Of a DNA stretch of 64,000 nucleotides, positions 33,322-56,326 are shown piece after piece. Numbering within the stretch: position 1 is the first letter of the stretch; every line of letters starts with the position of its first letter. Under the pieces are notes generated by a model that saw nothing but the letters and a program-made list of their open reading frames with translations, did not search any database and was not told where the DNA came from. Source of the stretch: an uncultured Clostridia bacterium. Lineage in GTDB: Bacteria > Bacillota > Clostridia > Christensenellales > CAG-917. The position numbers were made by a program, and so were the translations under genes. The DNA is taken from NCBI GenBank assembly GCA_937885645.1, contig CALABJ010000018.1:72203-136202 (forward strand), read 5' to 3'.

Positions 33322-33386
33322 CAAAAAACCGAGAGCAATCTCGGTTTTTTTATTAAAAGAAAAAACGGACTTGTTTGTCCGTTTTT
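33322..33386. repeat. Double-hairpin terminator cassette, left copy (inverted repeat partner of 44064-44129)
   Basis: aaaaaaccgagagcaatctcggttttttt followed by aaaaaacggacttgtttgtccgttttt, lying between convergent genes. By my manual alignment it matches the reverse complement of 44064-44129 except for a 1-nt T-run indel and 3 loop positions. Confidence 0.7.
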
Positions 33387-33400
33387 GTTTTGCACTTCCT

Positions 33401-34108: not shown

Positions 34109-34474
34109 GGGGGTGTACTGGATTCGACTACTGGTTGGAGTCGGGATAAGCATGTCGCAGGCTCGTCTGCGTTAAAACGGAAAGCTAAAATTAAATGCAA
34201 AAAACAATACTATGAGATCCTCAAACATGGGTCTCGCCCTCGCTGCATAATTTAGTCAGCGTGTCGCCCCGAGGTTTTCTGTTCCCTTGGCAAGCGGCAT
34301 CAGAAAAACAGACAACGCCAGCCCAGTGTCCTGTAAGTTGGTTGTCATGAAGGACTCATCAATCTGCGGTTCGCCCACGTACCAAAGTGCGAAAAATCTA
34401 AACGTGAGATAAACATGTAGAAAGTCGCGGTGAAGGCTTTTAGGACCGGGGTTCAACTCCCCGCATCTCCACCA
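34109..34474 (+). ncRNA. ssrA: tmRNA (SsrA)
   Basis: 5' GGGGGTGTACTGGATTCGAC. The 3' T-arm is cGGGGTTCAACTCCCCg plus CATCTCCACCA. The acceptor stem pairs, including a G3:U pair. The internal tag ORF gca aaa aac aat act atg aga tcc tca aac atg ggt ctc gcc ctc gct gca taa encodes AKNNTMRSSNMGLALAA*. Confidence 0.9.
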
Positions 34475-34475
34475 A
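34454..34475 (+). repeat. attL-side 22-bp direct repeat (3' end of ssrA)
   Basis: caactccccgcatctccaccaa is identical to 44039-44060. Confidence 0.85.
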
Positions 34476-34476
34476 T

Positions 34477-34520
34477 GACAACCATATTCGAACTCTGTTC
34501 GAGACTGGTTGTCTTTTTCT
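34477..34520 (+). terminator. Element-supplied terminator for ssrA
   Basis: gacaacca...tggttgtc stem (34477-34513) followed by ttttt, immediately after the tmRNA CCA end. Confidence 0.6.
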
Positions 34521-34700
34521 TTATCAATGAATTATAGCACAATGCTTTATGCCGCGAAAGGTTCTTTACATGAGTAGGAACGTGTTAGGCTATTTGCCAA
34601 GGCAAAACAAAAGCCCCTTGGGCGGTGGTGTTGGCTTCTTTGCCATCATACCACGTTCCGAAGAGGCTCGTGTCAAGAGCACCGTGGAATAAACATTGCA

Positions 34701-36224
34701 CTATCCAATTATCATCTCTATATCTATGTCAAATAGATATGGCTCCTTCTTGCTCTCAATATAGACTGGCATCACCAGTTTTTCTTTGTAAAATAAAAAG
34801 CCCTGACTTATCTCAGGACTTGTTGTTATTGGGCTGTTTAGATATATTTCAATTTTGTCGTTGAAAACTATGATCTCTTTTATTAAAGTTCCAATCAGCA
34901 TTTGTGCATCCAGCCTTAATGCCTTTTCGTAAAATGATTTTATTTGCACCTCATTCAAACAGATTATCGTCTTGCATTTCTCAATGCTTATTTCCTTTTC
35001 TAGCTCAATTTGTCTGGTTTCAAGTTCATGCAATCGCTTATTTGTTGTGTTAGACATTATACCTCTTTCAAGCGCAGCAACCAAGTTATTTAAAGAAGTT
35101 TCTACCTGCCTTAATTCTCGTTGTAGTGAGCCAAGCCGAGGATTGTCTTTAAGCAACTTATTCTGCAAAGCCATAACATTTTTAATTAAGCCATTCATCG
35201 TTGTAGGTTCACATAATTTTGAAATGATAATATCTATGATAAAATTCTCAAAATCATCCTTCCGAATAGTTGTTTTTTGGCAACCATTTCTATATGTTTT
35301 TCTGCCACGACATTTGTAGTAATGGACTTTTTTGCCCGTCTTAGATGTTCCACTTTCTGCGCTAAAAGGTTTGCCACAATAACCACATTTTACCTTATCT
35401 CTCAGCAGATAAACGGCATTAAGACTTCGTGTTCCTCTAAAATTAGTACTCAAGATTTGTTGGACTTGTTGATAGACCTCTACATCAACTATTTTAGGAT
35501 ATATGTTGTCAAACACCTCTCCATTATGCCTATATATCCCCGTGTATTTTTCCTTTCTCAAAATATTGTAAAGCATGTTCATATTGAAAGGCTTTCCTCT
35601 GTAAAGAACACCCTTTTCGGTGAGCGACTTAATAATTTGTGGCACGTATACACCAACGGCATATTGTGAGAAAATATACCTTACAATTTCTGCCTCGCCC
35701 TCGTTGATAACAATCTTCTTATCAACCACCTTGTATCCGTAGGGGACACCTCCACCACAATATAATCCTTTCTTTCGATTTTCATCTTGTCCACGGCGTA
35801 TCTTTTGTGACATTTCAGCTGAGTAATATTCAGCGATACCAATATAGACGTTTTCAAGCAGTATGCCATCTAGGTTTTTTGTGCCATCAATATTCTCGGA
35901 TGTTCGTTGCGTTGCAGAGATAAGAATCTTGCCATTATCGGTCAATTTCTTCTTGTTGAGTATGACCTCAGTTGAGTTTCTTCCAAATCGATCTATGGCA
36001 TAAACAAGAACGATTTCCCATGGTGCATTTTTGCTATCTGACAGCATTTGTTGGAATGCTGCTCGGTTATCATTGGTGCCTGTCATGGCACGATCTATGT
36101 ATGTGTTGACAATAAGCAAGTTGTTATCTCTTGCATATTTTTCACACACTGTAAGTTGACCTTCAATAGATTGTTCGGTCTGTGCATTGCTAGAGTATCT
36201 AGCATAGATTACTGCAGATTTCAT
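34701..36224 (-). CDS. Large serine recombinase (integrase)
   Basis: N-terminal resolvase catalytic domain AVIYARYSSNAQTEQSIEGQ. Then a recombinase domain, a zinc-ribbon (CGYCGKPFS...YYKCRGRK) and a coiled-coil-like region. 507 aa. Confidence 0.9.
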   Translation of the reverse strand: MKSAVIYARYSSNAQTEQSIEGQLTVCEKYARDNNLLIVNTYIDRAMTGTNDNRAAFQQMLSDSKNAPWEIVLVYAIDRFGRNSTEVILNKKKLTDNGKILISATQRTSENIDGTKNLDGILLENVYIGIAEYYSAEMSQKIRRGQDENRKKGLYCGGGVPYGYKVVDKKIVINEGEAEIVRYIFSQYAVGVYVPQIIKSLTEKGVLYRGKPFNMNMLYNILRKEKYTGIYRHNGEVFDNIYPKIVDVEVYQQVQQILSTNFRGTRSLNAVYLLRDKVKCGYCGKPFSAESGTSKTGKKVHYYKCRGRKTYRNGCQKTTIRKDDFENFIIDIIISKLCEPTTMNGLIKNVMALQNKLLKDNPRLGSLQRELRQVETSLNNLVAALERGIMSNTTNKRLHELETRQIELEKEISIEKCKTIICLNEVQIKSFYEKALRLDAQMLIGTLIKEIIVFNDKIEIYLNSPITTSPEISQGFLFYKEKLVMPVYIESKKEPYLFDIDIEMIIG

Positions 36225-36411
36225 ATTTTATCCTCCTATTTTGTATTAATAAAATTTGTCTTTCGACAGGAGCAAAGAAAACGGAACGGCGTTAAGCTGC
36301 TCGCTTTTCTTTTGAGTTCATCTGCTTTTATACAAGGGTTGAGTATCAATGCACCTTGCCCTTGTATAAAAGAGTCGTTCCGTTTATGCTCCACAAAAGG
36401 CGAAAGAAAAA

Positions 36412-37293
36412 CTAGTTCGCCTTTCTCATTTGTGCTATTACTTCGGGGCTAACTTTTCCCATATAACAACCCTCATCTAAGCATTGAAAGTCGTCAAAAA
36501 GTATTAGTTTAATTCCTTTCTTTTCGTCCATGCTGCACGCCACATCTTCATCCAAAATGTCCGAAATAAAATAGGTCGGCGTGCCTTTGGAATACACTAC
36601 TCTCTCACCGGATTTTTCTAGGTATTTCATCAAGTATCTTTTGGCATCTTGTATTGCATCCATATTGCTTTGGATAGGGCTGAAATCAGACCTTCCAAAC
36701 CTTTCATTGAAATATGTGTTTTGCGTTGTAGTTTGCCTTTTATGAGTGTTGAAACTGTAATCGGTCACTTCTATTAACTCACCAACCATTGCGCCCTCAG
36801 GGATGTTAAAAATGCCGTGGAAGTGCAATCTGTTCTTTTCTGGACTACGTTCCCAAACGCCGATATATACCCAACCTTTTCTATGACTCATTTTCTTCAA
36901 GCAATTGGATAGTTTCTTTTTGAAACTTTCTTCATCGTGTAATTTGTCGTCATAGGTGAATGTGCAAAAGTAGTTCCATCTTCCAATATTAATTTTCCTA
37001 GACAATCTCTTTCTTCGTTCAATAAGGTTTCTTTGTCGCTTTTCCATATATTCATCTGCAAATTGTTTTGCCTCATTTTCATCTTCAAAATATCCTTTCA
37101 ATTCCCTTATCAATTCTTCTTTCTTCTCAACCTTTTTCTTGCCTTTGTTTTCCTCAAATACTTTGTCCGCTTTTTCTTTTAATTCAATGTCATCTTTGCT
37201 TATTTTCTTTCGTTTCTTCGTAGGTCTTGTTGTCTTTGGTATGGCAATATAATGACTGCCGTCTGAGTAAATTTTTGTCTCTTCGTAAAACAT
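36412..37293 (-). CDS. Rolling-circle replication initiator (HUH endonuclease, Rep)
   Basis: Motif I WNYFCTFTYD, motif II (HUH) RLHFHGIFN and motif III AKRYLMKYLEKS (catalytic Tyr). Lys-rich N-terminus. Confidence 0.75.
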   Translation of the reverse strand: MFYEETKIYSDGSHYIAIPKTTRPTKKRKKISKDDIELKEKADKVFEENKGKKKVEKKEELIRELKGYFEDENEAKQFADEYMEKRQRNLIERRKRLSRKINIGRWNYFCTFTYDDKLHDEESFKKKLSNCLKKMSHRKGWVYIGVWERSPEKNRLHFHGIFNIPEGAMVGELIEVTDYSFNTHKRQTTTQNTYFNERFGRSDFSPIQSNMDAIQDAKRYLMKYLEKSGERVVYSKGTPTYFISDILDEDVACSMDEKKGIKLILFDDFQCLDEGCYMGKVSPEVIAQMRKAN

Positions 37294-37296
37294 GTT

Positions 37297-37446
37297 TTAA
37301 TCCTCCTTTTCGTTTTCTAGTTGCTCTTTGTGAAGCGACAAAACTCGTGCTAGCAGTGTGGCATAAATTGCCTTCTGCTGTTGTTCACTAAGGCTATTGA
37401 CATCTATGTTTCCGCGCACAATAACCTCAATTCCATTTTTGTCCAT
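37297..37446 (-). CDS. Small hypothetical protein (49 aa) translationally coupled to Rep
   Basis: Not in the ORF track because it is under 60 aa. AAAAGGAGG lies 7 nt upstream of the ATG at 37446. Translation: MDKNGIEVIVRGNIDVNSLSEQQQKAIYATLLARVLSLHKEQLENEKED. The stop lies 3 nt before the rep ATG. Confidence 0.5.
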   Translation of the reverse strand: MDKNGIEVIVRGNIDVNSLSEQQQKAIYATLLARVLSLHKEQLENEKED

Positions 37447-37769
37447 AGCGACACCTCCTTTTGTTTTATTTCAAAAGGTATGAAAAAAACGCAATACGAA
37501 AACGTATTACGCCATTCCATTAAGTGCACCATCCGATACTAGCCCTCGGACGACGGGTTTGCGCCTTTTTTATTCGGCAATCTTTACATTAGGCTTGCCA
37601 CCTTGAATGCGATTTCAGTCCTTTTTTATTCAACTTGATTTTATCTTATTTTGTTTTGAGGGTGTGAGTCTTTTGCCGTTAAGATATCCACACTTTCCGT
37701 TATGAAAATATAGGAAAACGATACTTTTAGGTAAGTTAGTGATGTCTGAATTTGTGGCAAAGAAAAAGT

Positions 37770-37884
37770 CCCCCCAATATATAGCCACGAAAAACGCAAA
37801 ATTTAACGGTCTAAACGAAAAATTCTTGAAAAAATTTTTATCCCCTCAATATATATACCTTGAGAACAGGCAAAATATAACGGT
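37770..37884. repeat. Two ~45-bp imperfect direct repeats in the element's non-coding region (iteron-like)
   Basis: ccccccaatatatagcc...gcaaaatttaacggt (37770-37810) versus cccctcaatatatatacc...gcaaaatataacggt (37842-37884). Confidence 0.5.
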
Positions 37885-37935
37885 TTTTTGAAAAAAGTTA
37901 AAAAAAATTTAATTGCCTTTGAAAAGATAAAGAAT

Positions 37936-37999
37936 CCAGCCAGAGGGATAGGCGAAAGATTGCACAAGCGGGCTAGCGTGCAACTTCGCCCCCTGCTGG
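37936..37999. other. Long imperfect hairpin (candidate single-strand origin or structured RNA)
   Basis: Three nested stems: CCAGC(c)AG(a)GG / CCCTGCTGG, GGCGAA / TTCGCC and TTGCAC / GTGCAA. About 22 bp over 64 nt. Confidence 0.45.
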
Positions 38000-38038
38000 C
38001 TTTATCTCAAAGCAATTTAGTTTTGTTTTTACACAACC

Positions 38039-38093
38039 GTGTGCTTGTCTATGGCGGAGCGAAGCGACGCCACTTGTATCAAGACAAGCACAC
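38039..38093 (-). other. Hairpin carrying a CTTGATA nick-site-like motif (candidate double-strand origin for the HUH Rep)
   Basis: Perfect 12-bp outer stem gtgtgcttgtct / agacaagcacac and inner stem tggcg / cgcca. The minus strand (the rep-coding strand) reads gtgtgcttgTCTTGATACaag at 38077-38083. Confidence 0.5.
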
Positions 38094-38204
38094 GTCTCAG
38101 TGCCATTCCATCGTAAATTTTGAAAAAAGATTGATTTTTTAATTAATTTGTGTTAAACTAATAATGTTCCACGGGACGAACAATATAACTTGGAGATTTT
38201 GTTA

Positions 38205-38393
38205 ATGAATGACGAATTTATTACCGCAAATCAAGCAGCAAAAAGATGGAACATTACGCAACGAAGAGTGCAAATCTTATGCGCTAAAGGGCGAATTGAC
38301 GGAGTCTTTAAATTGGGCGAAAGCTGGGTGATTCCTGCAAATGCCAAAAAACCAATCGACAGAAGAATTAAAAAGGAAAAAGAAAATGTTTAA
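38205..38393 (+). CDS. Small helix-turn-helix DNA-binding protein (excisionase/MerR-like HTH; controller or RDF candidate)
   Basis: 62 aa. ITANQAAKRWNITQRRVQILCAKGRIDGVFKLGESWVIP resembles excisionase-type HTH proteins. GGAG lies 9 nt upstream. Its 3' end overlaps the first methyltransferase start by 8 nt. Confidence 0.6.
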   Translation: MNDEFITANQAAKRWNITQRRVQILCAKGRIDGVFKLGESWVIPANAKKPIDRRIKKEKENV

Positions 38394-39429
38394 TGTATTA
38401 GATTTGTTTTGTGGATGCGGTGGATTGTCTTATGGATTTAAATCTGCAGGATATAATGTAGTTTTAGGTATTGACAATGATAAAAATGCCCTGGAAACAT
38501 TCGAATTTAACCATAAAAATTCAAAGTCAATATGTGGTGATATTACTACCATACGCGCAGAAGATATAAGTCGTATTGTTGGTGGAAAACAAATTGACGT
38601 TATCATTGGTGGACCGCCTTGCCAAGGAATGTCTTTATCCGGTCCTAGAAGATTCGATGATCCAAGAAATAAACTGTATTTATCTTATATTCGCCTTGTT
38701 GAAGAACTTCAACCTAAAGCGTTTGTTATAGAAAATGTTCCTGGATTAGTGTCGTTATTTAACGGACAAATTAAGGAAAGCATTGTCGAAAGATTAACAG
38801 CCTTAGGTTATAATGTGCAATACAAAATTTTGTGTTCGGCTGATTATGGTGTTCCCCAAAGTCGCAGAAGAGTTGTTTTTGTTGGATTAAAAACGGGCGA
38901 ATTTGTATACCCTGAAATTAATAATAATCAAGTAACTTGTGAAATGGCGTTGAGTGATTTGCCCCCCTTGATAGATTGTTTAGGGGAAGAAAATCAAGAA
39001 TATGCTACCAGAGCCACTTGCGATTATCAAAAACTGATGAGAAAACGTTCTAATGTAGTGAAAAATCATATAGCAGCAACTCATTCTGATAAAGTAAAAA
39101 ACATTATTTCTATGGTTCCCGATGGTGGTAATTATAAAAACCTCCCCGAACCCTATCGCAGCAGTCGAAATTTTCACGTGGCATGGACGCGTTTTAATAG
39201 TCAAAAGCCTGCTCCCACTATTGATACGGGGCATCGACATCATTTCCATTATAAGTATGATAGAGTTCCTACGGTTAGAGAATGTGCGAGGTTGCAATCA
39301 TTTCCCGATGACTTTATCTTCTTGGGAAACAAAACACAGCAATTCAGACAGGTTGGCAATGCTGTTCCACCATTAATGGCACAGGCGATTGCTGAACAGT
39401 TACTGCAATTTATTACTAAGGGGAACTAA
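38386..39429 (+). CDS. DNA (cytosine-5)-methyltransferase 1
   Basis: Motif I DLFCGCGG, IV GGPPCQGMS, VI ENVPGL, VIII QSRRRV and X GNAVPP. The start is taken at MFNVLDLF. Confidence 0.9.
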   Translation: MFNVLDLFCGCGGLSYGFKSAGYNVVLGIDNDKNALETFEFNHKNSKSICGDITTIRAEDISRIVGGKQIDVIIGGPPCQGMSLSGPRRFDDPRNKLYLSYIRLVEELQPKAFVIENVPGLVSLFNGQIKESIVERLTALGYNVQYKILCSADYGVPQSRRRVVFVGLKTGEFVYPEINNNQVTCEMALSDLPPLIDCLGEENQEYATRATCDYQKLMRKRSNVVKNHIAATHSDKVKNIISMVPDGGNYKNLPEPYRSSRNFHVAWTRFNSQKPAPTIDTGHRHHFHYKYDRVPTVRECARLQSFPDDFIFLGNKTQQFRQVGNAVPPLMAQAIAEQLLQFITKGN

Positions 39430-39430
39430 T

Positions 39431-40840
39431 ATGTATAAGGTTCCTGAAGAATATTATTTTAGAATACACCACGTTCGTCCGCGCTTTAAAGGCGATATTG
39501 AAAATGTTTTATTATTTATGGCGACAGAAATTTCCAAAATGGAAGAAATGCCTGACAAAGATTTTGCTAACGAATTAAACAATGCCATTAGAAGATATCC
39601 TGGCAATGGTATAAGAGAAATTAAAACAATTAACAATTGGAGAACGGAAATATCTGCTTTATTTGGTTATTTCATTGTGGAAAATGGAATAACTCGCGCT
39701 GGTAAGCGCGCTATTGAATTGGCTCAAAAGGAGGATTTGGTAGAAGCGTTTAAGACTTTCCTTTATACTTTCCAATATCCAGGCGCACATATTAAAACTC
39801 ACGAAGTATTAAAGCAAATTGAAAAAGGTGTTCATTTTAAGCCTGCACAGTACATACTACAAGTACTAGATGAGGCGGAAAAGGATGCGAATGGTAGAGT
39901 TGGATTAACCAAAGAAGAAGTTTGCCATTGTATTTTTAACGATTTGAGAGCAACGGCGCAATTAGAAACCCCGTTGGATACTTGGAAAAGGATAAAACAT
40001 AATCGCGATTTGGAAATGGAATATGATTCTACAGGAGATGTCGTTCGATATGCTGGTGATATCGTGGATTATATGGAAATTGCAAACTTATTAGTTTCCC
40101 ACGATTGTCGTTGTTATTACAAAAACAAGCTTGAAAGTGAAACAATATTAAAGTTTATTAATTCATCCGAGTGGTATAGTGCTTATGATAAACTAATTCA
40201 AAAGAAAAGCGCAACGCTTGAAAATATCAAAGATTGCGTAGTTGGTTGGTTTAAGTATGTAAATAAGGATTTGGCGGATACTGACTTCACTACGGATATT
40301 TTAGCGTTTATTGCAAACGATACGGACGAATATAAAGACCTTCAAAAAAGTAAAGATGATATTTTTGAGAAGTTGTTGGGTGGAGAAGATATTAAGACTA
40401 AGGATATTGGAGATATCGGAGAAAGTCTTGTTCATTCTCACGAATGTCAGAGAATTAAAATTGGTGGACGTGGAGACCTTATTCATTTAATTAAACGAAT
40501 CCCTACTCAATTTGCCGTGGGTTATGATATACAGTCCGTTGAAATTGATGAAAGAAAGAGATACATTGAAGTAAAAACTACAATTAGCTCAAAACCTTTA
40601 CATTTCAATAAAATTCATCTTACTCCAAATGAATGGAGCACAGCAACTACAACTCGTGACCGTTATTTTGTTTATAGGCTTATGATAAGCAAGGTGGATA
40701 AAAAGTTGTATGTCATTCAAGACCCTGTTGGTTTGTATAAAAATGATATAATTGAAATGATACCTAAAAATGGTGCGGAGATTACGTTAAACGTAGATAC
40801 CGCAGGACAATATGAGGAGTTATTATCGTGGGCAAATTAA
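39431..40840 (+). CDS. Putative restriction endonuclease (C-terminal PD-(D/E)xK, DUF3883-like domain)
   Basis: 469-aa ORF squeezed between two m5C methyltransferase genes: 1-nt gap upstream, 13-nt overlap downstream. The C-terminus has GYDIQS...YIEVKTT (D...ExK) and ...RDRYFVYRL..., resembling DUF3883. The N-terminal ~330 aa are unrecognised. Confidence 0.55.
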   Translation: MYKVPEEYYFRIHHVRPRFKGDIENVLLFMATEISKMEEMPDKDFANELNNAIRRYPGNGIREIKTINNWRTEISALFGYFIVENGITRAGKRAIELAQKEDLVEAFKTFLYTFQYPGAHIKTHEVLKQIEKGVHFKPAQYILQVLDEAEKDANGRVGLTKEEVCHCIFNDLRATAQLETPLDTWKRIKHNRDLEMEYDSTGDVVRYAGDIVDYMEIANLLVSHDCRCYYKNKLESETILKFINSSEWYSAYDKLIQKKSATLENIKDCVVGWFKYVNKDLADTDFTTDILAFIANDTDEYKDLQKSKDDIFEKLLGGEDIKTKDIGDIGESLVHSHECQRIKIGGRGDLIHLIKRIPTQFAVGYDIQSVEIDERKRYIEVKTTISSKPLHFNKIHLTPNEWSTATTTRDRYFVYRLMISKVDKKLYVIQDPVGLYKNDIIEMIPKNGAEITLNVDTAGQYEELLSWAN

Positions 40841-41793
40841 AAGTAGCATCATTATTTTGTGGTTGTGGCGGTACTGATGTTGGTTTGTTAGGCGGATTTG
40901 ACTTTTTAGGCAAGAATTATCCTAATAATCCCGTAAAAATTGTATATGCGAACGACATTGACGATAATGCTTGTCGCATATTTGAAGAAAATTTTGGTAT
41001 TACGCCTGATAATCGTGATATTAGAGAAATAAAATCAGAAGAACTTCCCAATTTTGATATTTTGACAGGTGGTTTTCCTTGTCAATCGTTTTCTATTGTC
41101 GCTCAAAATCCTAAACGCTTAGGCGTTAAAGACGATAGAGGCAAGTTGTTTTTTGAAATGTGTCGCATTTTAAGAGATAAAAAGCCAAAATGTTTTATAG
41201 CAGAAAATGTAAAAGGCATTTTGTCCGCTAATGAAAAAAATGCATTTCCGTTAATTACTAAAGAATTTGAAGATAGCGGCTATAATGTATCTTATAAACT
41301 TCTCAATGCGGTTAACTTTGGCGTTCCACAAAAGAGAGAAAGAGTTATTATTGTCGGCATAAGAAAAGATTTAGGTTTCACATTCGACTTTAACGGTTTG
41401 CCGCAAGAAGGCGATTTCCCTATTGCTTCACTCTCTCAAGTAATAGAAAATAGTGTTCCTGAAAAATACTTCTTTAGTCAAAAAGCCGTTGACGGAATGA
41501 TGAGAAAAAGAGAAACTATGAACAAAGGTCGTGCTCAAGACATCACTCAACCTTGCAATACGGTTGGAGCACACCTTGCAAAAGTTTCGTTGAATAGTAC
41601 TGACCCCGTTTTAATGGTCGGAGAAAGATATAGAAGATTTACTCCGAGAGAAGTTGCTCGCATTCAGTCTTTCCCGGAAACTTTCAAATTGGTAGGTTCG
41701 GAATCGGCTCAATATAAGGCTTTAGGCAATGCTATTGCACCTGTTATGTTTTGGCATGTAGCAAATTCTGTATTAAAACGCTTAAAAGACTAA
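40828..41793 (+). CDS. DNA (cytosine-5)-methyltransferase 2
   Basis: GTG start. Motif I SLFCGCGG, IV GGFPCQSFS, VI ENVKG, VIII QKRERV and X GNAIAPV. Confidence 0.9.
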   Translation: MGKLKVASLFCGCGGTDVGLLGGFDFLGKNYPNNPVKIVYANDIDDNACRIFEENFGITPDNRDIREIKSEELPNFDILTGGFPCQSFSIVAQNPKRLGVKDDRGKLFFEMCRILRDKKPKCFIAENVKGILSANEKNAFPLITKEFEDSGYNVSYKLLNAVNFGVPQKRERVIIVGIRKDLGFTFDFNGLPQEGDFPIASLSQVIENSVPEKYFFSQKAVDGMMRKRETMNKGRAQDITQPCNTVGAHLAKVSLNSTDPVLMVGERYRRFTPREVARIQSFPETFKLVGSESAQYKALGNAIAPVMFWHVANSVLKRLKD

Positions 41794-41806
41794 AAAAGGA
41801 GGAATT

Positions 41807-42940
41807 ATGGAATATATTAATAAGGAAAGCAAAAAAGACATATTGGTGGAAAAAGAAGAAAGTGAACTTTTGCCAACAGTAAACATTCGGGATTATAAGT
41901 TTACAACTATGGGTGGTGACATCCAAATTAGACAGTTTGTTGACCAGCTTAATGAAGGAGATATTGAGATTCCCGATATACAACGCCATTACGTTTGGCC
42001 GCACCTTCAGGCCAGTCGTTTTATAGAGTCAGCATTGCTTGATTTGCCTTTACCTAGTGTTTTTTTATGCAAACAAAAAAATGGCAAATATTTAATCGTA
42101 GACGGGTTGCAAAGGCTTAGCACTCTAAAAATGTTTTTAAATATGGAAACAATTAATGGTAAAATATTTAAACTCAGCAATTCAAAAGAGATTTATGAAG
42201 ATTGGAGAGGTAAAACATTCGGAGAGCTATCTGTTGATGACAAACGAAAATTGAAAAATAAAACGATACACGCTATTATAGTTGAACAGCAAAACCCTGA
42301 AAATTATGATGGTTTATTCTTAATATTTGAAAGAATAAACTCGGGAGGGGTGCAATTAAATCAACAAGAGATCCGAAATGCTATATATCAGACGGATTAC
42401 AATAGCTTATTGGCAACAATAAATGAAGACCCACTATGGAGATCGTTTTTTGGAGATAAAAATTCTCACAAACGAATGAAAGATGTAGAGATGATTTTGC
42501 GCTTTTTTGCGTTGGTGGATCATCCTATTAAAAACACTGACACGGGAACAACTTCTTTTGTAGCACTCTTAAATAAACAGATGAACGAAAATAAGGATGT
42601 CACCCAAGAAAAAATGGAAGCATCAAAAGATAGATTTTTGGCAACTCTTAACAAGCTTCGAGACTTTTTCAATACTGATATTTTTAGAATGAACATTTCG
42701 GATAAAAATAAAGTTACAAAGAAGTTCTACGCTACCTTGTTTGATTCAATTATGATAGCCACGGATTATGCTCTTTTAAAGGACCCGAATATACATTCCA
42801 ATACAAGCAAACTGGAAGAATTGTTTAAAAATGATTTGTTCAAAGGATTTATAAATTCTCATACATCAGAAAACAAGTCGATCTTTGGGAGAATAAATTT
42901 GGCGTGTCAAATTTTGTACGGAATGAACTATGCAAGATGA
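41807..42940 (+). CDS. DUF262 (ParB-like/GmrSD N-terminal) domain protein
   Basis: IEIPDIQRHYVW and YLIVDGLQRLSTL motifs typical of DUF262. I saw no DUF1524/HNH-type C-terminal motif. Confidence 0.75.
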   Translation: MEYINKESKKDILVEKEESELLPTVNIRDYKFTTMGGDIQIRQFVDQLNEGDIEIPDIQRHYVWPHLQASRFIESALLDLPLPSVFLCKQKNGKYLIVDGLQRLSTLKMFLNMETINGKIFKLSNSKEIYEDWRGKTFGELSVDDKRKLKNKTIHAIIVEQQNPENYDGLFLIFERINSGGVQLNQQEIRNAIYQTDYNSLLATINEDPLWRSFFGDKNSHKRMKDVEMILRFFALVDHPIKNTDTGTTSFVALLNKQMNENKDVTQEKMEASKDRFLATLNKLRDFFNTDIFRMNISDKNKVTKKFYATLFDSIMIATDYALLKDPNIHSNTSKLEELFKNDLFKGFINSHTSENKSIFGRINLACQILYGMNYAR

Positions 42941-43490
42941 TTATGTAAATAAAATAAATGCTACATTAAAAGAGTTGCTTAGGATACGGAAAAAAATCAA
43001 TAAATTTCAAAGCTCGCCTCATTCTATCAATATGCTTCCTGATATAAATGTATATAAAAACTATGCTGTGATTTTAGCATACGGATGTATAGAAAATATA
43101 TCTAAAAATATTATTGCTGATTATTATAAAATTTCAACAATGCCTATGCGATGCCAAGAGTTTGCAGCACGATTATTGGGCGATAAGTATTCTCTGTCCG
43201 TTGACAAAGAGAGCTTTAAGAATTTCCTCAAAAAAGAATGTAGTAGCGAATGGTTTGAAGAGATGAAACGCCGAGAAAAAGCTGATTTGTTAGATAAGCG
43301 CTATAAAAGATGCAGATATTCGAAGATGTGGATGGCATTAAATTTTATCTTTCAAGAAAGGTGTAATTTTGCGCATGGCAAATCTTCTTATCAAGGGACA
43401 ATTAAGGAGCTGATTGATAATTTTTATTCTGCTAGATCGTGGTTGTATGAATTAGATAACATCGTTTCCTCGTCCAAATTGAATGGATAA
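42930..43490 (+). CDS. HEPN-like protein (Rx4H motif; MAE_28990/MAE_18760-like)
   Basis: 186-aa ORF overlapping the DUF262 gene by 11 nt. It contains QERCNFAHGK (R-x4-H), the HEPN catalytic signature. The family assignment is from memory. Confidence 0.5.
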   Translation: MQDDYVNKINATLKELLRIRKKINKFQSSPHSINMLPDINVYKNYAVILAYGCIENISKNIIADYYKISTMPMRCQEFAARLLGDKYSLSVDKESFKNFLKKECSSEWFEEMKRREKADLLDKRYKRCRYSKMWMALNFIFQERCNFAHGKSSYQGTIKELIDNFYSARSWLYELDNIVSSSKLNG

Positions 43491-43531
43491 ATACATCGGG
43501 CTATAGATATGAAAATCGGAGGGGGTAATTT

Positions 43532-43666
43532 ATGAACTGCAATTGTGCCATTTGTAATAACAATAGTCCATTTGACATGCCTAAAGAAATAGTAGAAGCG
43601 GCCGTAATGCTGCAATGGCTAAGAGCTTCCCTTTTGTATATTTGCCAAATTCAGGGCAAAATCTAA
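43532..43666 (+). CDS. Small Cys-containing ORF (44 aa), possibly 5' part of a frameshifted gene
   Basis: GGAGGGGG lies 7 nt upstream of the ATG. Translation: MNCNCAICNNNSPFDMPKEIVEAAVMLQWLRASLLYICQIQGKI. It overlaps the +1-frame ORF 43615-43797. Confidence 0.3.
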   Translation: MNCNCAICNNNSPFDMPKEIVEAAVMLQWLRASLLYICQIQGKI

Positions 43667-43865
43667 ACAATTTAAAGGCTTATAATCGTGAGTTGGCAAT
43701 GGCATCTTCAAAAAACAAACAATATCATAAAGCCGCAAAGATAATTGTTAATAAGTGCTGTGGTGAAGATATTATAGTACATCATCCACCCTATTAATGC
43801 CGTGGAATTGATATAAACAATCATCTATTAGACATTGACTTAATGTTCGAATATCTTTGATATTG

Positions 43866-43911
43866 CTCCACCAAAAGGACAAAACGGACAAACAAGTCCG
43901 TTTTTTCTTTT
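43866..43911 (+). repeat. Partial third copy of the ssrA 3' tip plus its downstream terminator
   Basis: ctccaccaaaaggacaaaacggacaaacaagtccgttttttctttt versus 44052-44097 ctccaccaaaagtacaaaacggacaatttagtccgttttttctttt. The 46-nt alignment has 4 mismatches, 3 of them in the hairpin loop. Confidence 0.7.
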
Positions 43912-44038
43912 GGCAGAGTGTGGGGATACACAACTACGTTGTGTGCAACTTTGTTGCTATGAACCACGGGGCCGGGCTGGCGCTCATTCGCCTGTGCAAG
44001 CACGCTCATTTCACTATTACAGCGCGCGGACGCGCCTA

Positions 44039-44060
44039 CAACTCCCCGCATCTCCACCAA
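44039..44060 (+). repeat. attR-side 22-bp direct repeat
   Basis: caactccccgcatctccaccaa is identical to 34454-34475. Confidence 0.85.
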
Positions 44061-44063
44061 AAG

Positions 44064-44129
44064 TACAAAACGGACAATTTAGTCCGTTTTTTCTTTTAAT
44101 AAAAAACCGAGATTGCTCTCGGTTTTTTG
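44064..44129. repeat. Double-hairpin terminator cassette, right copy (probable native ssrA terminator + terminator of the lipoprotein gene)
   Basis: acaaaacggacaatttagtccgtttttt followed by aaaaaaccgagattgctctcggtttttt. Inverted-repeat partner of 33322-33386. Confidence 0.7.
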
Positions 44130-44146
44130 TTTGAGATTAGGATTTG

Positions 44147-46822
44147 TTAGATTGTTTTTGTGAAGGTGATTGTGGCGGTGTCGCCGTTGATTGAGTCCAC
44201 AACAAAGTTGTAAACAAGAGCATTTCCGCTGTCGTCTGTGACTGCACCCATTGTGTCACCTGCGATATAGGTGAAAGTGTCGTTTGATGACTTTATATAC
44301 TCAATAAGGTTGTTTAAAGTACCGTATTGGTCAGATGAGTGGGTATTGTTGTTGTAGACGTCATAGTACGTTTCACCGTCATAAACCTCACGATAGAGGG
44401 AAGCATTGACGTGATAGACCACCACGCCGTCACGGGAGAAATAGCCGTAGTCATCACCTGCGTTGAGGCCTGTGTTGGTGTAGTACATAAGGACGTAATA
44501 TTCTTGATATGCACCAAGGTCATCAGACCAGTTGTTTGCGATGATGATGGTGTCACCTGTCTTGCCGAAATCGGTGAGAGTGAGGGTGACAGAGTCCTCC
44601 GCCACAACAAGGCGAGAGGGGGTAATCCAGCCGTAGTTGAACTTGGTGTAGGGGTTGTGGTCGCCGAACATAGCGTCCATCATATCTTTGCCGTCGAGGA
44701 GCAAATCCTCATTGACGTAAGCGGTGTCGTAGTAGTCGTCTGCACCGAGGACGTGGGCAAATTCGTGGACGTATGTGTAGGTGTTGAAGGCGGTGGTGCC
44801 GGTGTAGTCAACGTTGCCGTCCTCGTCGTAGGACTCATGCATAAATTGATATGACGCCCAGAGATAGTCGTTGGCACTGACACCGTCGTATTCGTAGTAA
44901 TATCCGTCCTCGTCCACGTGGGTGTTCCAATATCTATATGCCCAGTAGAAGTCGGCGGAGTCATCTATGTCGAGAGTGTGGATGATGACAACTGCATCAA
45001 TAATGGAGTTGCCGTCGCTGTCGAACTCGCTGAGATCCATAGTGGTGGCAAGATATTGAAGAGCCTCGTCAATGATCAGTTGATCGCCGTTCATACCGCC
45101 TTCAGCGTCAGTAGAGTTGGCGTAATATGTGCTGTTGTTTTCAGGTCTAAACCAACTGTCAAGGACGGTGAAGTCCAACGTCAATTGACCATAGCTTGAA
45201 ATGTTGAAATATTCATAGACAGAGTAGAATCCGTCAGTTGAATCATTGCTTTCAAATGCCTTTTTGATGAGGTCGATATCGTATCCTTTGCTTGATGCCG
45301 TCACGTCAGCAAAGTCCACGGGAATGACAAGCACCTTAGGTGTGCCAGTTGTGGGGCATCCGTCAAGATAATATCCTTGGTCGTGGACGTTTTTCACATT
45401 GGTTGCTTTGGAGAAGTCAATGTTATATACACCATTTGTGCCTGAGGGGAGACCAAGTCCGTTGTTGGTGATGAGGTCAACATCATCAGTGTTGCCACCG
45501 CCGGTGTTTCCGCCAGTATTTCCGCTGTCACCACTGCCGTCACCCTCGGTGTAGAGATAGACATAAAGATCAACCACATATCCGTCTTCGGTGTTGTAGT
45601 ATGCCACGTCAATGCAGATGTCGCCCTTGTCGTAGAAATACCAAGTGTCACCGTATTCATCTACGTCACTGCCAGAGAGCACGTATCCTGCGCTGACAAG
45701 AGCGGAGCGATATGCATTGTATTCCGCCTCGGTATTGCCGTAGGTGTAGAAGTTGACGCCGTTTTCACCTTCAAGGGTATATTCGTCAACGTAATATTCG
45801 TTGTTTGAGAGGAAGGGGATAGTTTCACCCACTTTTGCAATTATCGTTTGATTTTCAGATGCAGTGAAAGCGGTGTAGGTCTTTGTGTCACCAGTGTTTC
45901 CGCCAGTATTTCCGTTATCACCACTGCCGTCATCTTCGGTGTAAAGATAGACGTATGAGTCCACCACGTACTCGCCTTCATAATAGTAGAATGAGATGTC
46001 AATGCAGACGTCGCCTTTTTCGTAATAATACCAAGTGTCGCCATATTCATCTTCGCCGTCACCCACAAGGGTATAGCCTACGCTGACGATAGTTGTGCAG
46101 TATGCGTCAAATTCCGCTTTGGTATTGCCGAAGGTGTAGAAAGCGATGTATGTGCCGTATTCATCACTGCCCACCTCAACGTAGTATTCGTCGTTGGGGA
46201 GGAAGGGGATAGTCTCACCAACCAAGTTTGTCAGCATATCAACTTCACCAGAAGTGAAAGAGGTGTAGGTTTTGCCTGAGGGAGTATCACCGTCACTAGG
46301 GGTATCTCCGCCAGAGGGAGTATCATCGCCTCCGGGATTGTCACCGCCGGGAGTATCACCACCGCCGGGGGTATCTTCGGGGATAATGCGAAGTGTTGCA
46401 ACGGCGGTGATTGTGCCGTTTGAGTATGACATTTCAACACGGATGACATTTTTGTCCGCAAGTTCTTTTTCATAGATGTGCCAAGTCTTGCCACCGATAT
46501 CATCTATGTAGGCATCTTTATATTCATATCCTGTCATAAGACTGCGATATGTGATAAAATCGTCAACCTCCGCACCATTGATGGTGTAGGTGACTGCTTC
46601 AGCATTTCCCACAACAGAATACTCATTGCAGGGCAGGAAGGGGATAGTCTCACCGACCAAATCCACAAACGCCGCTTTTTCTTCATCGGTGAAATCGGTG
46701 TAGAGGTATGTAGGTGTGCCGTCAGCAGGATTGTCGTCTATTGGTTCGTCAACGGGGCTACAAGCCACAAAAAGGGACAAACCAATGAGGAATACAAGGA
46801 TAAGTGCAAGCAGTTTTTTCAT
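44147..46822 (-). CDS. Secreted lipoprotein: three tandem ~130-aa repeats plus C-terminal M6 (InhA-like) zinc metalloprotease domain
   Basis: ATG at 46822 preceded by GAGGTG. Signal peptide MKKLLALILVFLIGLSLFVAC. KVLVIPVDFAD and the HEXXH motif in VHEFAHVLGADDYYD (nt 44753-44767) resemble M6 peptidases. Confidence 0.7.
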   Translation of the reverse strand: MKKLLALILVFLIGLSLFVACSPVDEPIDDNPADGTPTYLYTDFTDEEKAAFVDLVGETIPFLPCNEYSVVGNAEAVTYTINGAEVDDFITYRSLMTGYEYKDAYIDDIGGKTWHIYEKELADKNVIRVEMSYSNGTITAVATLRIIPEDTPGGGDTPGGDNPGGDDTPSGGDTPSDGDTPSGKTYTSFTSGEVDMLTNLVGETIPFLPNDEYYVEVGSDEYGTYIAFYTFGNTKAEFDAYCTTIVSVGYTLVGDGEDEYGDTWYYYEKGDVCIDISFYYYEGEYVVDSYVYLYTEDDGSGDNGNTGGNTGDTKTYTAFTASENQTIIAKVGETIPFLSNNEYYVDEYTLEGENGVNFYTYGNTEAEYNAYRSALVSAGYVLSGSDVDEYGDTWYFYDKGDICIDVAYYNTEDGYVVDLYVYLYTEGDGSGDSGNTGGNTGGGNTDDVDLITNNGLGLPSGTNGVYNIDFSKATNVKNVHDQGYYLDGCPTTGTPKVLVIPVDFADVTASSKGYDIDLIKKAFESNDSTDGFYSVYEYFNISSYGQLTLDFTVLDSWFRPENNSTYYANSTDAEGGMNGDQLIIDEALQYLATTMDLSEFDSDGNSIIDAVVIIHTLDIDDSADFYWAYRYWNTHVDEDGYYYEYDGVSANDYLWASYQFMHESYDEDGNVDYTGTTAFNTYTYVHEFAHVLGADDYYDTAYVNEDLLLDGKDMMDAMFGDHNPYTKFNYGWITPSRLVVAEDSVTLTLTDFGKTGDTIIIANNWSDDLGAYQEYYVLMYYTNTGLNAGDDYGYFSRDGVVVYHVNASLYREVYDGETYYDVYNNNTHSSDQYGTLNNLIEYIKSSNDTFTYIAGDTMGAVTDDSGNALVYNFVVDSINGDTATITFTKTI
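45485..46714 (-). repeat. Intragenic tandem repeats (3 units) in the lipoprotein gene
   Basis: The units start (P/K)TY..FT...LVGETIPFL(P/S). Units 2 (45884-46273) and 3 (45485-45883) are clearly similar at protein level and each ends in GSGD(N/S)GNTGGNTG. Unit 1 is diverged and ends in a TPGGGDTPGGDNPGGDDTPSGGDTPSDGDTPSG linker. Confidence 0.8.
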
Positions 46823-47027
46823 AATGCACCTCATTTGTTTTTTTATATTGTAGCACAAATGAAGAAATATGGAAATATTTTTTTATCTTAGCGCGTACCA
46901 CCTGCGCGCGCAAAACATTATTCAAAAATTGAACCTACAATAGTGGAGAGTTTTATCTTCAAAACAGGGGATAAACCACTGAAAATGTTATATAAACCCA
47001 CAAAAACGATGAATAAAATTCATAATG

Positions 47028-47056
47028 TTGACAAAGCGGATATTTGGTTTTATAAT
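47028..47056 (+). promoter_or_regulatory. Consensus sigma-A promoter upstream of the ECF-S-like gene
   Basis: TTGACA (47028-47033), exactly 17-nt spacer, TATAAT (47051-47056). AAGGTG RBS before the ATG at 47084. Confidence 0.6.
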
Positions 47057-47083
47057 TTATCTATACTTTAAGAAGGTGATTTT

Positions 47084-47896
47084 ATGGCAAAGTCAACTGC
47101 AAGAAACAAAATGGGAAGGACAAAACTGATTGCACTCTTGGCACTCATGCTTGCTCTCACCATAATTTTCTGCTTCGTGCCCATCCAGTTTGGCCCGATA
47201 ACTTTGGCATTGATGATATTGCCCACCCTTATCCTTGCCCAAGTTTGTGACTTCAAGATTTCCTTGTTTATGGGTCTTATGATGGGGCTCATCAACTATA
47301 TTGCATGGTTCACAACAAAAGCCGCAAGCCCCATTGCACCTATCTTCCAAAATCCTTTGGTGTGCATTCTGCCTAGAGTGCTCATTGCAGTGGTGGCATA
47401 TTGGTCTCGTATAGGTCTTGAAAAACTCCTCCTTGAAAAGTGGCTAGGCATCAACTTGAAACCTGAAAAAGTAGTTGTAGAAGAGGATGACGAAGAGGAA
47501 GCACAACTTGACGGAATTGCCGATGTTATGACCGATGAGGTGACAGAGGATATCGCACCTCAAGAGAAAATCACCGCAACTGATGACGTCATCGTAGATG
47601 ACGAAGTTGAGGAAAATGAACTCACCGACAAGGAAAAGAAAGCCAAAAAGGCAAAGGAAATTGCCGTAAGACAAGTGGTTCACTTGGTGTCAACCGCTCT
47701 CGGTGTCATCACCAACACCGTGTTTGTGGCAATCTTCACCCTGATCTTCTTCAACAACACCTCTCTTGGCAACACAATCATCAACGTGGAATATATCCTT
47801 GCTTGGTTCAGTTTGAACTTTGGCATAGAGGTTGTGGCATTCAGCCTTATCACACCGCCTATCGCCACTGCAATCCGTGCTGCAAAACTGGTTTAG
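47084..47896 (+). CDS. ECF-transporter S-component-like membrane protein with a long acidic insertion
   Basis: The TM pattern and sequence (FVPIQFGPITLALMILPTLILAQ...) resemble ECF substrate-capture subunits. Residues ~111-196 are an E/D-rich insert (VVVEEDDEEEAQLDG...DDEVEENELTDKEKKAKKAK). Confidence 0.5.
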   Translation: MAKSTARNKMGRTKLIALLALMLALTIIFCFVPIQFGPITLALMILPTLILAQVCDFKISLFMGLMMGLINYIAWFTTKAASPIAPIFQNPLVCILPRVLIAVVAYWSRIGLEKLLLEKWLGINLKPEKVVVEEDDEEEAQLDGIADVMTDEVTEDIAPQEKITATDDVIVDDEVEENELTDKEKKAKKAKEIAVRQVVHLVSTALGVITNTVFVAIFTLIFFNNTSLGNTIINVEYILAWFSLNFGIEVVAFSLITPPIATAIRAAKLV

Positions 47897-47966
47897 TTGA
47901 CAGAATAATGCAACGATGATACAATGAAAATGGTATGCAAAGCATATCATTTTTTTTGGAGAAATT

Positions 47967-48602
47967 ATGCCCTGGATAGTCCAAAGTTTGCTCATATCCG
48001 TGTCCTTGTCAATGGACGCATTTGCAGTCAGTTTGTCAAACGGCTTGACCGCAAAAAAGATGCCTGTGAAATATATGATTCTCACAGCCCTTTCCTTTGG
48101 ACTTTTTCAAGGAATTATGCCCCTCATAGGCTATCTTCTAGGCAGTCTATTTGAAAAGTGGATTGAGGTGGCAGTGCCCATAATCGGCTTCTGCATCCTG
48201 TTCCTTTTGGGCGCAAAAATGATATTTGATTCCGTCCGCGACATAATGAAGGAAAAGAAGGCAAAAGAGAAGGAAACCGACAATCTATCCTGCCCGAATT
48301 GCCTTGACAATAAAGAGGAAAAGCCCTACAAGTTTGGGGTGAAAACCCTCATTATTCAGTCTGTGGCGACCTCAATTGATGCTCTCACCGTTGGGCTTGT
48401 CTATATAGGCAAATCACCTCTTGAAACCTATGTCACCTTTGCGCTTATTGCAGTGATAACATTCGGCATTTGCGTAGGCGGAGTATTCATCGGTCAAAAG
48501 TTTGGAGACAAGCTGAAATCAAAGTCCGGGATACTTGGCGGACTTATCCTCATAGCAATCGGTCTTAAACTGCTCATTGAGTTTTTGATTGAAAGATTTT
48601 AG
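47967..48602 (+). CDS. mntP: Manganese efflux pump MntP family
   Basis: Two DUF204-like halves (SVSLSMDAFAVSLSNG and QSVATSIDALTVG). The central loop has a KEKKAKEKETDNLSCPNCLDNKEE insert. Confidence 0.8.
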   Translation: MPWIVQSLLISVSLSMDAFAVSLSNGLTAKKMPVKYMILTALSFGLFQGIMPLIGYLLGSLFEKWIEVAVPIIGFCILFLLGAKMIFDSVRDIMKEKKAKEKETDNLSCPNCLDNKEEKPYKFGVKTLIIQSVATSIDALTVGLVYIGKSPLETYVTFALIAVITFGICVGGVFIGQKFGDKLKSKSGILGGLILIAIGLKLLIEFLIERF

Positions 48603-48746
48603 GCGGTTCGAAATTGAAAAACTCTTTTGTTTAACAACGTCACACGTCAAAATTGTCGTCGCCAAGACCACAACAATAGCTAGACAGCAAGCAAGATGTG
48701 TCTATTGAGCACATTGCAACAACAAAAACAACAAAAAACGCCAATT

Positions 48747-48776
48747 CAAAAAGCACTGTGATAGTGCTTTTTGTTT
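48747..48776 (+). terminator. Terminator downstream of mntP
   Basis: agcact-gtgat-agtgct stem followed by a T-run. Confidence 0.5.
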
Positions 48777-48856
48777 TATTTTTATTATTTTTATGGCATT
48801 TTCTGCGGTTTTTGCAAGTTTTTTCATCTCAAACGGACACAAATCAAAATTGGGTA

Positions 48857-48885
48857 TTGTGAAATTGGCGGTTTTAGTGTATAAT
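48857..48885 (+). promoter_or_regulatory. Putative promoter of the nucleoside cluster
   Basis: TTGTGA, 17-nt spacer, TATAAT (48880-48885). About 40 nt upstream of the pdp ATG. Confidence 0.45.
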
Positions 48886-48924
48886 GTATTGGCTAAAAGC
48901 CAATATCCCTTTTGGAGGAATATT

Positions 48925-50226: not shown

Positions 50227-50233
50227 GTGAAAA

Positions 50234-50830: not shown

Positions 50831-50963
50831 GACCATACTGGCACAGCGTGTCAACTGGCTTGTATCTCAATGAGAAAAACAAAATAGTCAACAAAACACA
50901 GAAAGTACAACACTCACAGCAAACGACAACTTAAAATACAAAAGCAAAATCACACGGAAAGAT

Positions 50964-51584: not shown

Positions 51585-51645
51585 TCCCCAATCGAAGCGA
51601 CGAAACAGCCGACGAAATAGACGAAATAAAAGAACAGGAAAAGTT

Positions 51646-52557: not shown

Positions 52558-52666
52558 TAAACCCTCGATTTTGTAAACAAACAAAAAATAAACTCAGTGA
52601 AAACAACGTGGAATATGCGTGGCATATCCCACCAAAAATAGTAATAAAATTTAGGAGAAATAAATT

Positions 52667-53335: not shown

Positions 53336-53345
53336 GGAGGAAACT

Positions 53346-55213: not shown

Positions 55214-55259
55214 CCCCAGTTCATCTTAAAAATTTGAGTAGAGATGAAAGGAGAAAACT

Positions 55260-55661: not shown

Positions 55662-55735
55662 AAAATCTACTAAACAGCAGAAAGTGGTGTTTATCTTGCG
55701 TATATGACAGGATAAACATCGCTTTTGGCTTTATT

Positions 55736-55945: not shown

Positions 55946-55998
55946 ATAGAACCTTTCCTTTTGCACACAATAGTGTCAAAACCAAAAAGGAGGTTTCT

Positions 55999-56241: not shown

Positions 56242-56302
56242 CAAATTTTTGAGGGAAGAAAATAAACCTTAACCCTCAACCCAAAAAAGACCAAAACAAA
56301 AA

Positions 56303-56326
56303 ACCGAGCACACCGCTCGGTTTTTT
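56303..56326. terminator. Bidirectional terminator between convergent genes
   Basis: A-run, then accgagc-acacc-gctcggt, then a T-run. Confidence 0.6.

Follow-up and report, generated by a model that had tools for sequence, protein, structure and literature searches.

A divergent BpuJI-family Type IIS restriction-modification cassette of gut Clostridia with a CCCGT-bearing promoter element and a probable non-canonical controller

Which kind of restriction-modification (R-M) system is encoded by four tightly packed open reading frames (ORFs) on contig CALABJ010000018.1 of an uncultured Clostridia bacterium (assembly GCA_937885645.1), which DNA site does it recognise, and how is it controlled? 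The window analysed here is the 64,000-nucleotide (nt) stretch at positions 72,203 to 136,202 of that contig, and all coordinates below are those of the window unless a homologous locus is named. The four ORFs occupy the forward strand at 38205-41793 in the order HTH-M1-R-M2, namely a small helix-turn-helix (HTH) gene followed by two 5-methylcytosine (m5C) DNA methyltransferase genes with a nuclease gene between them (Table 1). The original prediction, made from the sequence letters, described a single R-M module in which both the nuclease family and the specificity looked uncharacterised. We consider it very likely that the region is a complete R-M operon of the BpuJI family of Type IIS enzymes, with CCCGT as its likely target and with the HTH gene as its own regulator.

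Both parts of the R protein (469 amino acids, aa) are recognised by profile searches. Residues 2-274 match the Pfam family PF11564, BpuJI_N, from one end of the profile to the other (positions 1-278 of 278, E 8.5e-100, 334 bits at a gathering score of 25), so the N-terminal ~330 aa, earlier described as matching nothing recognisable, do contain a known domain. The C-terminal residues 332-428 match NOV_C/DUF3883 (E 1.6e-13). A search of PDB sequences with R (phmmer) retrieved the BpuJI recognition domain (2VLA/5HLT, E 1.4e-14), and the PADLOC model REase_II (PDLC03432) aligns over the full length of the protein (E 2e-27); NCBIfam contained no model matching R. The AlphaFold2 model of R, computed with a 35-sequence alignment, has a mean pLDDT (predicted local distance difference test) of 79.9. 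The best PDB matches of this model in Foldseek are four BpuJI recognition-domain entries, including 2vla_A and 5hnf_A, with E ~1e-14, template-modelling (TM) scores normalised to the target of 0.84-0.85, root-mean-square deviations (rmsd) of ~3 Å and 22% identity (for 2vla_A, E 3.8e-14, TM 0.85 and rmsd 3.1 Å). They are followed by the Type IIS nickase Nt.BspD6I and then by assorted PD-(D/E)XK nucleases that are matched by the C-terminal part. The structure prediction that had been proposed for a supposedly novel N-terminal domain has thus led back to a known one.

BpuJI, from Bacillus pumilus RFL1458, is a Type IIS enzyme with the asymmetric site 5'-CCCGT (PDB 2VLA; Sukackaite et al. 2007, PMC1874659). 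The enzyme is dimeric, its N-terminal domain binds the site as a monomer and its C-terminal domain is a resolvase-like PD-(D/E)XK nuclease; cleavage is Mg2+-dependent, is activated by cognate DNA and takes place at multiple positions near the site, with an optimum when the enzyme is bound to two sites (PMC1874659). In its motif YD348...E367VK369 the substitutions D348A, E367A and K369A abolish cleavage while binding is kept, and the BpuJI R gene lies between two m5C methyltransferase genes (PMC1874659). Like BpuJI, the R protein of the window joins a BpuJI_N recognition domain to a resolvase-like PD-(D/E)XK domain with a YD...EVK triad, and its gene has an m5C methyltransferase gene on either side. 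The motif reads Y365-D366 ... E380-V381-K382 (GYD(366)IQS ... IE(380)VK(382)TT) and lies inside the NOV_C/DUF3883 match, as had been suggested for a C-terminal D...ExK core in a DUF3883-like context. D366, E380 and K382 are invariant in the 35-sequence alignment, which covers both clades of the family and includes BpuJI-proximal sequences that are 22-26% identical to R; the three residues on which the nuclease call had been made to depend are therefore conserved. Because fold, active site and gene order all agree, R is a member of the BpuJI family, for which biochemical and structural data exist, and the description of the nuclease family as uncharacterised is superseded by the combined results of Pfam, the PDB sequence search, Foldseek and residue conservation.

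By homology to BpuJI, the N-terminal double winged-helix domain of R would read an asymmetric site, and the C-terminal resolvase-like nuclease would use D366, E380 and K382 for cleavage. The nuclease is expected to remain auto-inhibited until the N-terminal domain has bound its site, whereupon it would cut at variable positions nearby, best with two sites and with a requirement for Mg2+. In its layout, with winged helices that read the DNA at the N-terminus and a PD-(D/E)XK domain that cleaves it at the C-terminus, R resembles FokI and Nt.BspD6I, although its nuclease domain is of the resolvase/NOV_C type and not FokI-like, and sequence similarity to these enzymes is undetectable. The hosts also differ, with a gut Clostridia/Christensenellaceae-like organism in the case of the window and a Bacillus in the case of BpuJI.

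Homologues of R with the same two domains are numerous (over 2,600 at E <= 1e-5, mostly from gut Clostridia and mostly 469-473 aa long), and the NCBI names for them are only "DUF3883 / NO VEIN domain-containing protein". The nearest genome matches (94% identity) come from metagenome-assembled genomes of Christensenellaceae and other gut Clostridia. With the window cassette, a family whose founder was characterised in 2007-2008 gains a divergent clade from gut Clostridia, and linking the "DUF3883/NO VEIN" proteins to BpuJI aids both their annotation and the prediction of m5C motifs in gut methylomes. Beyond this new, divergent membership the system is an ordinary one; only the promoter element and the non-Xre controller described below exceed routine annotation. 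Among the relatives, three proteins of 816-819 aa (P0025, P0046 and P0097) are natural fusions of an m5C methyltransferase with a BpuJI-like nuclease that is 63-75% identical to R of the window. Many others (P0122-P0178) are BpuJI_N-only proteins of 180-370 aa that have no nuclease domain; some of them may be cut by contig ends, and others may be stand-alone DNA readers of the CCCGT type. One BpuJI-proximal cassette (locus L028, 3127-4084) has its second methyltransferase split in two ORFs and an R protein of 412 aa that lacks the segment matching the second DNA-reading helix of BpuJI, with the CCCGT element kept, and this locus may be a decaying copy.

The two methyltransferases are complete. 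M1 and M2 match PF00145 over the full profile (E 1.1e-81 and 1.2e-75, respectively) as well as TIGR00675 dcm, and M1 also matches the PADLOC model MTase_II (E 1.8e-121). The motif set FxGxG, PCQ, ENV, QxRxR and GNA that was the reason for calling both of them intact m5C enzymes is present in each translation, as FCGCGG, PPCQGMS, IENVPG, QSRRRV and GNAV in M1 and as FCGCGG, FPCQSFS, AENVKG, QKRERV and GNAI in M2. Identity between the two is 28% overall and 18% in the variable region, which is consistent with two different strand specificities. The presence of two m5C enzymes is accounted for by the need of an asymmetric target for a separate enzyme on each strand, and the earlier idea of an asymmetric site agrees in this respect with the BpuJI arrangement (PMC1874659). 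M1 and M2 would accordingly be distinct enzymes that each protect one strand; if the target is CCCGT, one of the two must act on the single cytosine of the bottom strand (ACGGG). The orthologue of M1 in BpuJI-proximal cassettes is their first methyltransferase, with which M1 shares 53% overall identity and 49% identity within the variable region. M2 shows 51% overall and 46% variable-region identity to the methyltransferase downstream of the R gene of a Sporolactobacillus, whose R recognition domain is 82% identical to that of BpuJI.

The ORF boundaries and junctions given in the original prediction were all found to be correct when the sequence was reread. The HTH gene and M1 overlap by 8 nt, M1 and R are separated by 1 nt, and R and M2 overlap by 13 nt; a purine-rich sequence resembling a Shine-Dalgarno site precedes every one of the four starts. 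Such tight packing agrees with the view of the genes as a single unit. As an exact look-up of the window R protein in public assemblies returned no record, the context of the cassette was drawn from homologues. Two samples were used: 24 genome loci compared by tblastn with the window proteins, and 80 metagenome loci found by a scan with an alignment of the HTH protein, which was employed to capture diversity since a search with the 62-aa protein itself gave only 33 close relatives. About 20 of the 24 genome loci (R identities 60-94%) and most of the metagenome loci share the order HTH-M1-R-M2, and the four-gene cassette was present in about 90 of the retrieved loci. In Acetoanaerobium sticklandii M1, R and M2 occur with the same 13-nt overlap between R and M2 as in the window and without the HTH gene.

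The HTH protein had been described as a small excisionase-type protein rather than an Xre-type controller (C) protein, and the searches bear this out. Its best Pfam match is HTH_17 (PF12728, E 8e-5, 23.3 bits, which is below the cut-off of 27), HTH_59 was matched as well, and the protein matches phrog_2655, annotated "excisionase" (E 6e-9); HTH_3 was absent from the Pfam results, and the NCBIfam and PDB sequence searches returned nothing for this protein. The consensus of its relatives, TASQAAKKWNISQRRVQILCxEGRIxGVFKLGExWAIP, is strongly conserved. In about 100 loci the gene directly precedes M1, in most cases with an overlap or end to end, so that it travels with the methyltransferase and nuclease genes and not with the recombinase. 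One relative is particularly instructive. From the start codon of M1 onward the cassette of locus L019 is 88% identical in DNA sequence to that of L017, and the homology ends exactly at this codon; upstream of it an Xre-type HTH gene (4710-4922 of L019) takes the place of the HTH_17-like gene together with its promoter, and CCCGT is not present there. Since the replacement falls exactly on the boundary of M1, the position of the HTH gene is a regulator slot. We conclude from gene content and position that the HTH protein is probably the non-canonical controller of the cassette, i.e., a functional analogue of the C-proteins and not a member of their family.

The region upstream of the HTH gene contains a putative sigma-70-type promoter, which in the window is too weak to be listed by a consensus scan; in close relatives a clear TTGACT-17-TATAAT occupies the corresponding position. 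Alignment of the regions upstream of the HTH genes revealed a conserved element with the consensus TT(G/A)TTCG-N-CCCGT-N-GAA(C/T)AA, which adjoins the -10 box or lies between the -35 and -10 boxes. Practically every locus with the HTH gene has the element upstream of that gene. The core of the window copy contains ACGGG at 38171-38175, that is, CCCGT on the minus strand, so the promoter of the cassette carries the very site of BpuJI. Among the BpuJI-family cassettes the core is CCCGT in 80 of 89, including 69 of the 72 cassettes of the window clade and 11 of the 17 BpuJI-proximal ones; the latter include cassettes whose R is 43-52% identical to the near-BpuJI protein of Sporolactobacillus. The chance of encountering CCCGT or ACGGG in these loci is 0.002 for a random 7-nt window and 0.011 for a 20-nt window. 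The positions that flank the core vary (C, T or A before it; G, A or C after it), and the orientation of the element and its distance from the start codon differ between clades, with the orientation flipped in the window clade. In cassettes that have no HTH_17-like gene, CCCGT is absent within 700 nt upstream of M1.

We also considered whether the element could act as an RNA hairpin and rejected this possibility: of 200 shuffled sequences 140 fold as well as the element, whose folding energy of -4.2 kcal/mol corresponds to a z of +0.61. With a stability no greater than that of shuffled controls, the element is better explained as a DNA site; covariation between its arms is only partial. The single-base variant of the core that recurs in both types of cassette that carry the element is G4 to A (CCCAT here and CCTAT in the sibling type described below). 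Deamination of the only possible m5C of the bottom strand would produce this change, and the pattern is suggestive without being statistically strong; several of the cassettes also carry a Vsr gene. The BpuJI-family cassette with a CCTGC core (L068) has an HTH protein most similar to those of the CCTGT-type loci, which fits another regulator swap.

The likely mode of regulation combines features of two groups of known systems. Like C.PvuII, C.AhdI and C.Kpn2I, the HTH protein is the product of a small gene that heads the operon, is translationally coupled to the next gene and has a conserved element in its own promoter. In contrast to classical C-proteins it is HTH_17/excisionase-like rather than Xre/HTH_3, it precedes a methyltransferase gene and hence the whole operon rather than R alone, and its element is a single TTCG-N7-GAA unit instead of paired C-boxes. 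The HTH protein would probably bind this element at the promoter and, the core being CCCGT, the methylation state of the system's own site may influence expression. Regulation by methylation of their own promoters, a rarely used mode, has been described for CfrBI, AhdI and LlaDII (PMC12707154), and the LlaJI promoter holds two LlaJI sites (PMC1459862). The window cassette resembles these systems in having its probable recognition site within its own promoter region, where methylation feedback is possible, and differs from them in that the site forms part of the sequence to which a dedicated HTH protein presumably binds and that the genes form a single co-directional operon. A tentative and somewhat doubtful extension of these observations is that the HTH_17-like protein and TTCG-N7-GAA together form a portable, previously undescribed controller of Type IIS m5C R-M systems, in which the core is the system's own site and its methylation by M1 and M2 would tune the binding of the HTH protein or of RNA polymerase. 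If this were true, the specificity of a cassette could be read directly from its promoter, and the element would serve as an epigenetic sensor of the protection status. Candidate promoter-methylation control with a non-canonical controller protein recurs in roughly 100 loci, and its regulation merits follow-up.

Two other accounts of the genes themselves have to be weighed. The HTH protein might be the excisionase of the genomic island in which the cassette resides, that is, the directionality factor of its serine recombinase, and not a regulator of R-M genes. The families that it matches best, HTH_17 and a PHROG annotated as excisionase, and the large serine recombinase gene in the same island speak for this possibility. 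We nevertheless consider it very unlikely, given that the gene is kept next to M1 in about 100 loci while a relative of the serine recombinase is found within 6-kb flanks in only 2 of the 24 genome loci, that the same HTH gene also heads a different two-methyltransferase cassette (L055, L077 and L107), that the Xre-type regulator of L019 substitutes for it precisely at the M1 boundary, and that its own promoter has a conserved element. It could also be argued that the cassette is a decaying or domesticated remnant, with an R protein that does not restrict and methyltransferases that act as orphans. Degraded relatives do exist, such as L021 with a truncated R match, L028 with its split M2 and the partial L050, and the database holds many BpuJI_N-only proteins. 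In the window, however, the four ORFs are all of full length and their domain matches span the whole profiles, R and its 95%-identical homologue are both 469 aa long, and the catalytic residues and the coupled junctions have been retained, which makes a remnant very improbable.

The specificity is the more delicate question. The operator core and methyltransferase orthology provide moderate evidence for 5'-CCCGT, which we propose as the most likely target of the window system. The alternative is an R-M system of the BpuJI family with another site, the CCCGT of the promoter being part of the HTH binding site and matching the BpuJI site by coincidence. Several observations weigh against our proposal and in favour of this alternative. 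The recognition domain of R is only ~22-26% identical to that of BpuJI, which leaves room for a drift of specificity. A secondary source (PMC9240713) gives N67 and Q208 of BpuJI as required for DNA binding; N67 is conserved in R (TINNWRTEI, compared to TLDNHRTEI in BpuJI), but the segment around Q208, the second DNA-reading segment, is gapped in the alignment and cannot be aligned. Nine apparently intact BpuJI-family cassettes have other cores (CCCAT in five, CCCTT in two, and CCAAT and CCTGC in one each), so that CCCGT in the operator is not indispensable, and the core of the sibling cassette, CCTGT, differs from it by one base. Taken over all loci, the cores conform to a loose CCYGT consensus, the HTH gene and the element always co-occur, and cassettes that lack the HTH gene have no CCCGT in the 700-nt region mentioned above; the core may therefore simply be part of a CCYGT-like HTH site that is inherited with the HTH gene. 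Because element and cassette are co-inherited, the counts of cores do not represent independent events. Finally, neither the island nor the host sequence of the window shows a depletion of CCCGT/ACGGG (for the host sequence, 53 occurrences compared to 57 expected, which ranks 201st of 512), a comparison that is uninformative given that it covers only 54 kb and that the island was acquired recently.

Against a coincidental match stands the low chance, given above, of finding exactly the BpuJI pentamer in a 7-nt core or even in a 20-nt window. The pentamer remains invariant while its flanks, its orientation and its position relative to the -10 box change, and the CCCGT element is also found where R is 43-52% identical to the near-BpuJI protein. 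In BpuJI-proximal cassettes, where R shares 43-82% identity with BpuJI, the methyltransferases are ~50% identical to M1 and M2 with the variable regions included. The recurrent G4 to A variants are what bottom-strand m5C deamination would be expected to leave. We consequently regard a site other than CCCGT as unlikely, if far from negligible, and retain CCCGT as a cheap and testable prediction of specificity that the promoter element provides. The original description of the specificity as uncharacterised holds only in a narrow sense, since operator core and methyltransferase orthology point to the site of BpuJI. A search of the literature for CCCGT methylomes found only a table for Staphylococcus xylosus with two CCCGT methyltransferases, which is uninformative for the clade of the window; the table lists other Type II genes beside them, including an endonuclease of the LlaJI family.

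The same HTH gene and TTCG-N7-GAA element also head a sibling cassette, found in L055 (4498-8380), L077 (4498-8024) and L107 (4486-8386), in which the HTH gene is followed by two other m5C methyltransferase genes and then by a gene for a nuclease of ~357-360 aa. The core of the element is CCTGT in these loci except for L107, where it is CCTAT, and Vsr genes accompany the cassette in L055 and L107. The C-terminus of the sibling nuclease is NOV_C, and its N-terminal ~200 aa have no match in Pfam or the PDB. The description of a nuclease with an unrecognised reader domain fits this cassette and not that of the window, and the sibling nuclease is a candidate for an uncharacterised Type IIS-like enzyme. 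If the controller is indeed portable in the manner outlined above, the recognition site of the sibling cassette is probably CCTGT.

Table 1. Positions of the cassette, its promoter and the surrounding island in the window
Feature	Position	Strand	Basis or remarks
Putative sigma-70-type promoter	38131-38159	+	TTGATT, 17-nt spacer, TAAACT; read from the sequence
Operator-like element	38165-38182		TGTTC-CACGGGA-CGAACA; frame TTC-N7-CGAA, reverse of TTCG-N7-GAA
HTH gene, 62 aa	38205-38393	+	ATG 38205, stop 38393; HTH_17/excisionase-like, probable cassette controller
M1, m5C DNA methyltransferase, 347 aa	38386-39429	+	ATG 38386, stop 39429; PF00145 over full profile
R, BpuJI-family Type IIS restriction endonuclease, 469 aa	39431-40840	+	ATG 39431, stop 40840; BpuJI_N and NOV_C matches
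R, N-terminal DNA-recognition domain, residues 2-274	39434-40252	+	two winged-helix subdomains by BpuJI homology
R, C-terminal PD-(D/E)XK nuclease domain (NOV_C/DUF3883), residues 332-428	40424-40714	+	profile match
R, catalytic codons	D366 40526-40528; E380 40568-40570; K382 40574-40576	+	YD...EVK motif
M2, m5C DNA methyltransferase, 321 aa	40828-41793	+	GTG start at 40828; PF00145
tmRNA gene	34109-34474		ARAGORN and Rfam; tag peptide AKNNTMRSSNMGLALAA
Low-GC island, ~9.6 kb, at the tmRNA 3' end	34475-44060		GC, tmRNA calls, direct repeat
Large serine recombinase	34701-36224	-	matches to Resolvase, Recombinase and Zn-ribbon domains
Rep ORF2/G2P-like protein	36412-37293	-	domain matches
DUF262/GmrSD_N protein	41807-42940	+	PF03235 E 4.3e-30; PADLOC NsnA E 3.4e-66, PD-T4-2_A E 7.5e-47
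RiboL-PSP HEPN protein	42930-43490	+	PF18735 E 3.4e-7

The cassette lies in an island that adjoins the 3' end of a transfer-messenger RNA (tmRNA) gene and has a guanine-plus-cytosine (GC) content of 0.32-0.38, compared to 0.41-0.51 elsewhere in the window. The terminus of the tmRNA gene (34443-34475) is repeated directly at 44028-44060 with 85% identity, the last 22 nt being identical (CAACTCCCCGCATCTCCACCAA). The recombinase and Rep-like genes suggest an integrative element that may replicate after excision. Downstream of the cassette, 13 nt after M2, begin the DUF262 and HEPN genes, which overlap each other by 11 nt. PADLOC gave no match for the HEPN partner, and NCBIfam had no model for either protein. 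The PD-T4-2 defence system consists of a DUF262 protein and a PF18735 HEPN protein (PMC10952713), and by its domain content the pair is a putative PD-T4-2-like two-gene defence module, although the PADLOC score for NsnA is higher than that for PD-T4-2_A. In spite of the short gap, the pair was rejected as a part of the R-M system, given that it follows the cassette in only 1 of the 24 genome loci (L004).

At the right end of the island two ~46-nt copies of CTCCACCAAAAG followed by a terminator hairpin are located at 43866-43911 and 44052-44097; they are 91% identical and 186 nt apart, and a related terminator is found at 33347-33392. The paired copies may be left over from a second, earlier insertion event at this tmRNA site. 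Outside the island, in the host sequence (1-34474 and 44061-64000), the pentamers GCAGC, GCCGC and TCCGA, each together with its reverse complement, are strongly depleted (Markov z ~-6.5 to -6.7), which possibly reflects other restriction systems of the host.

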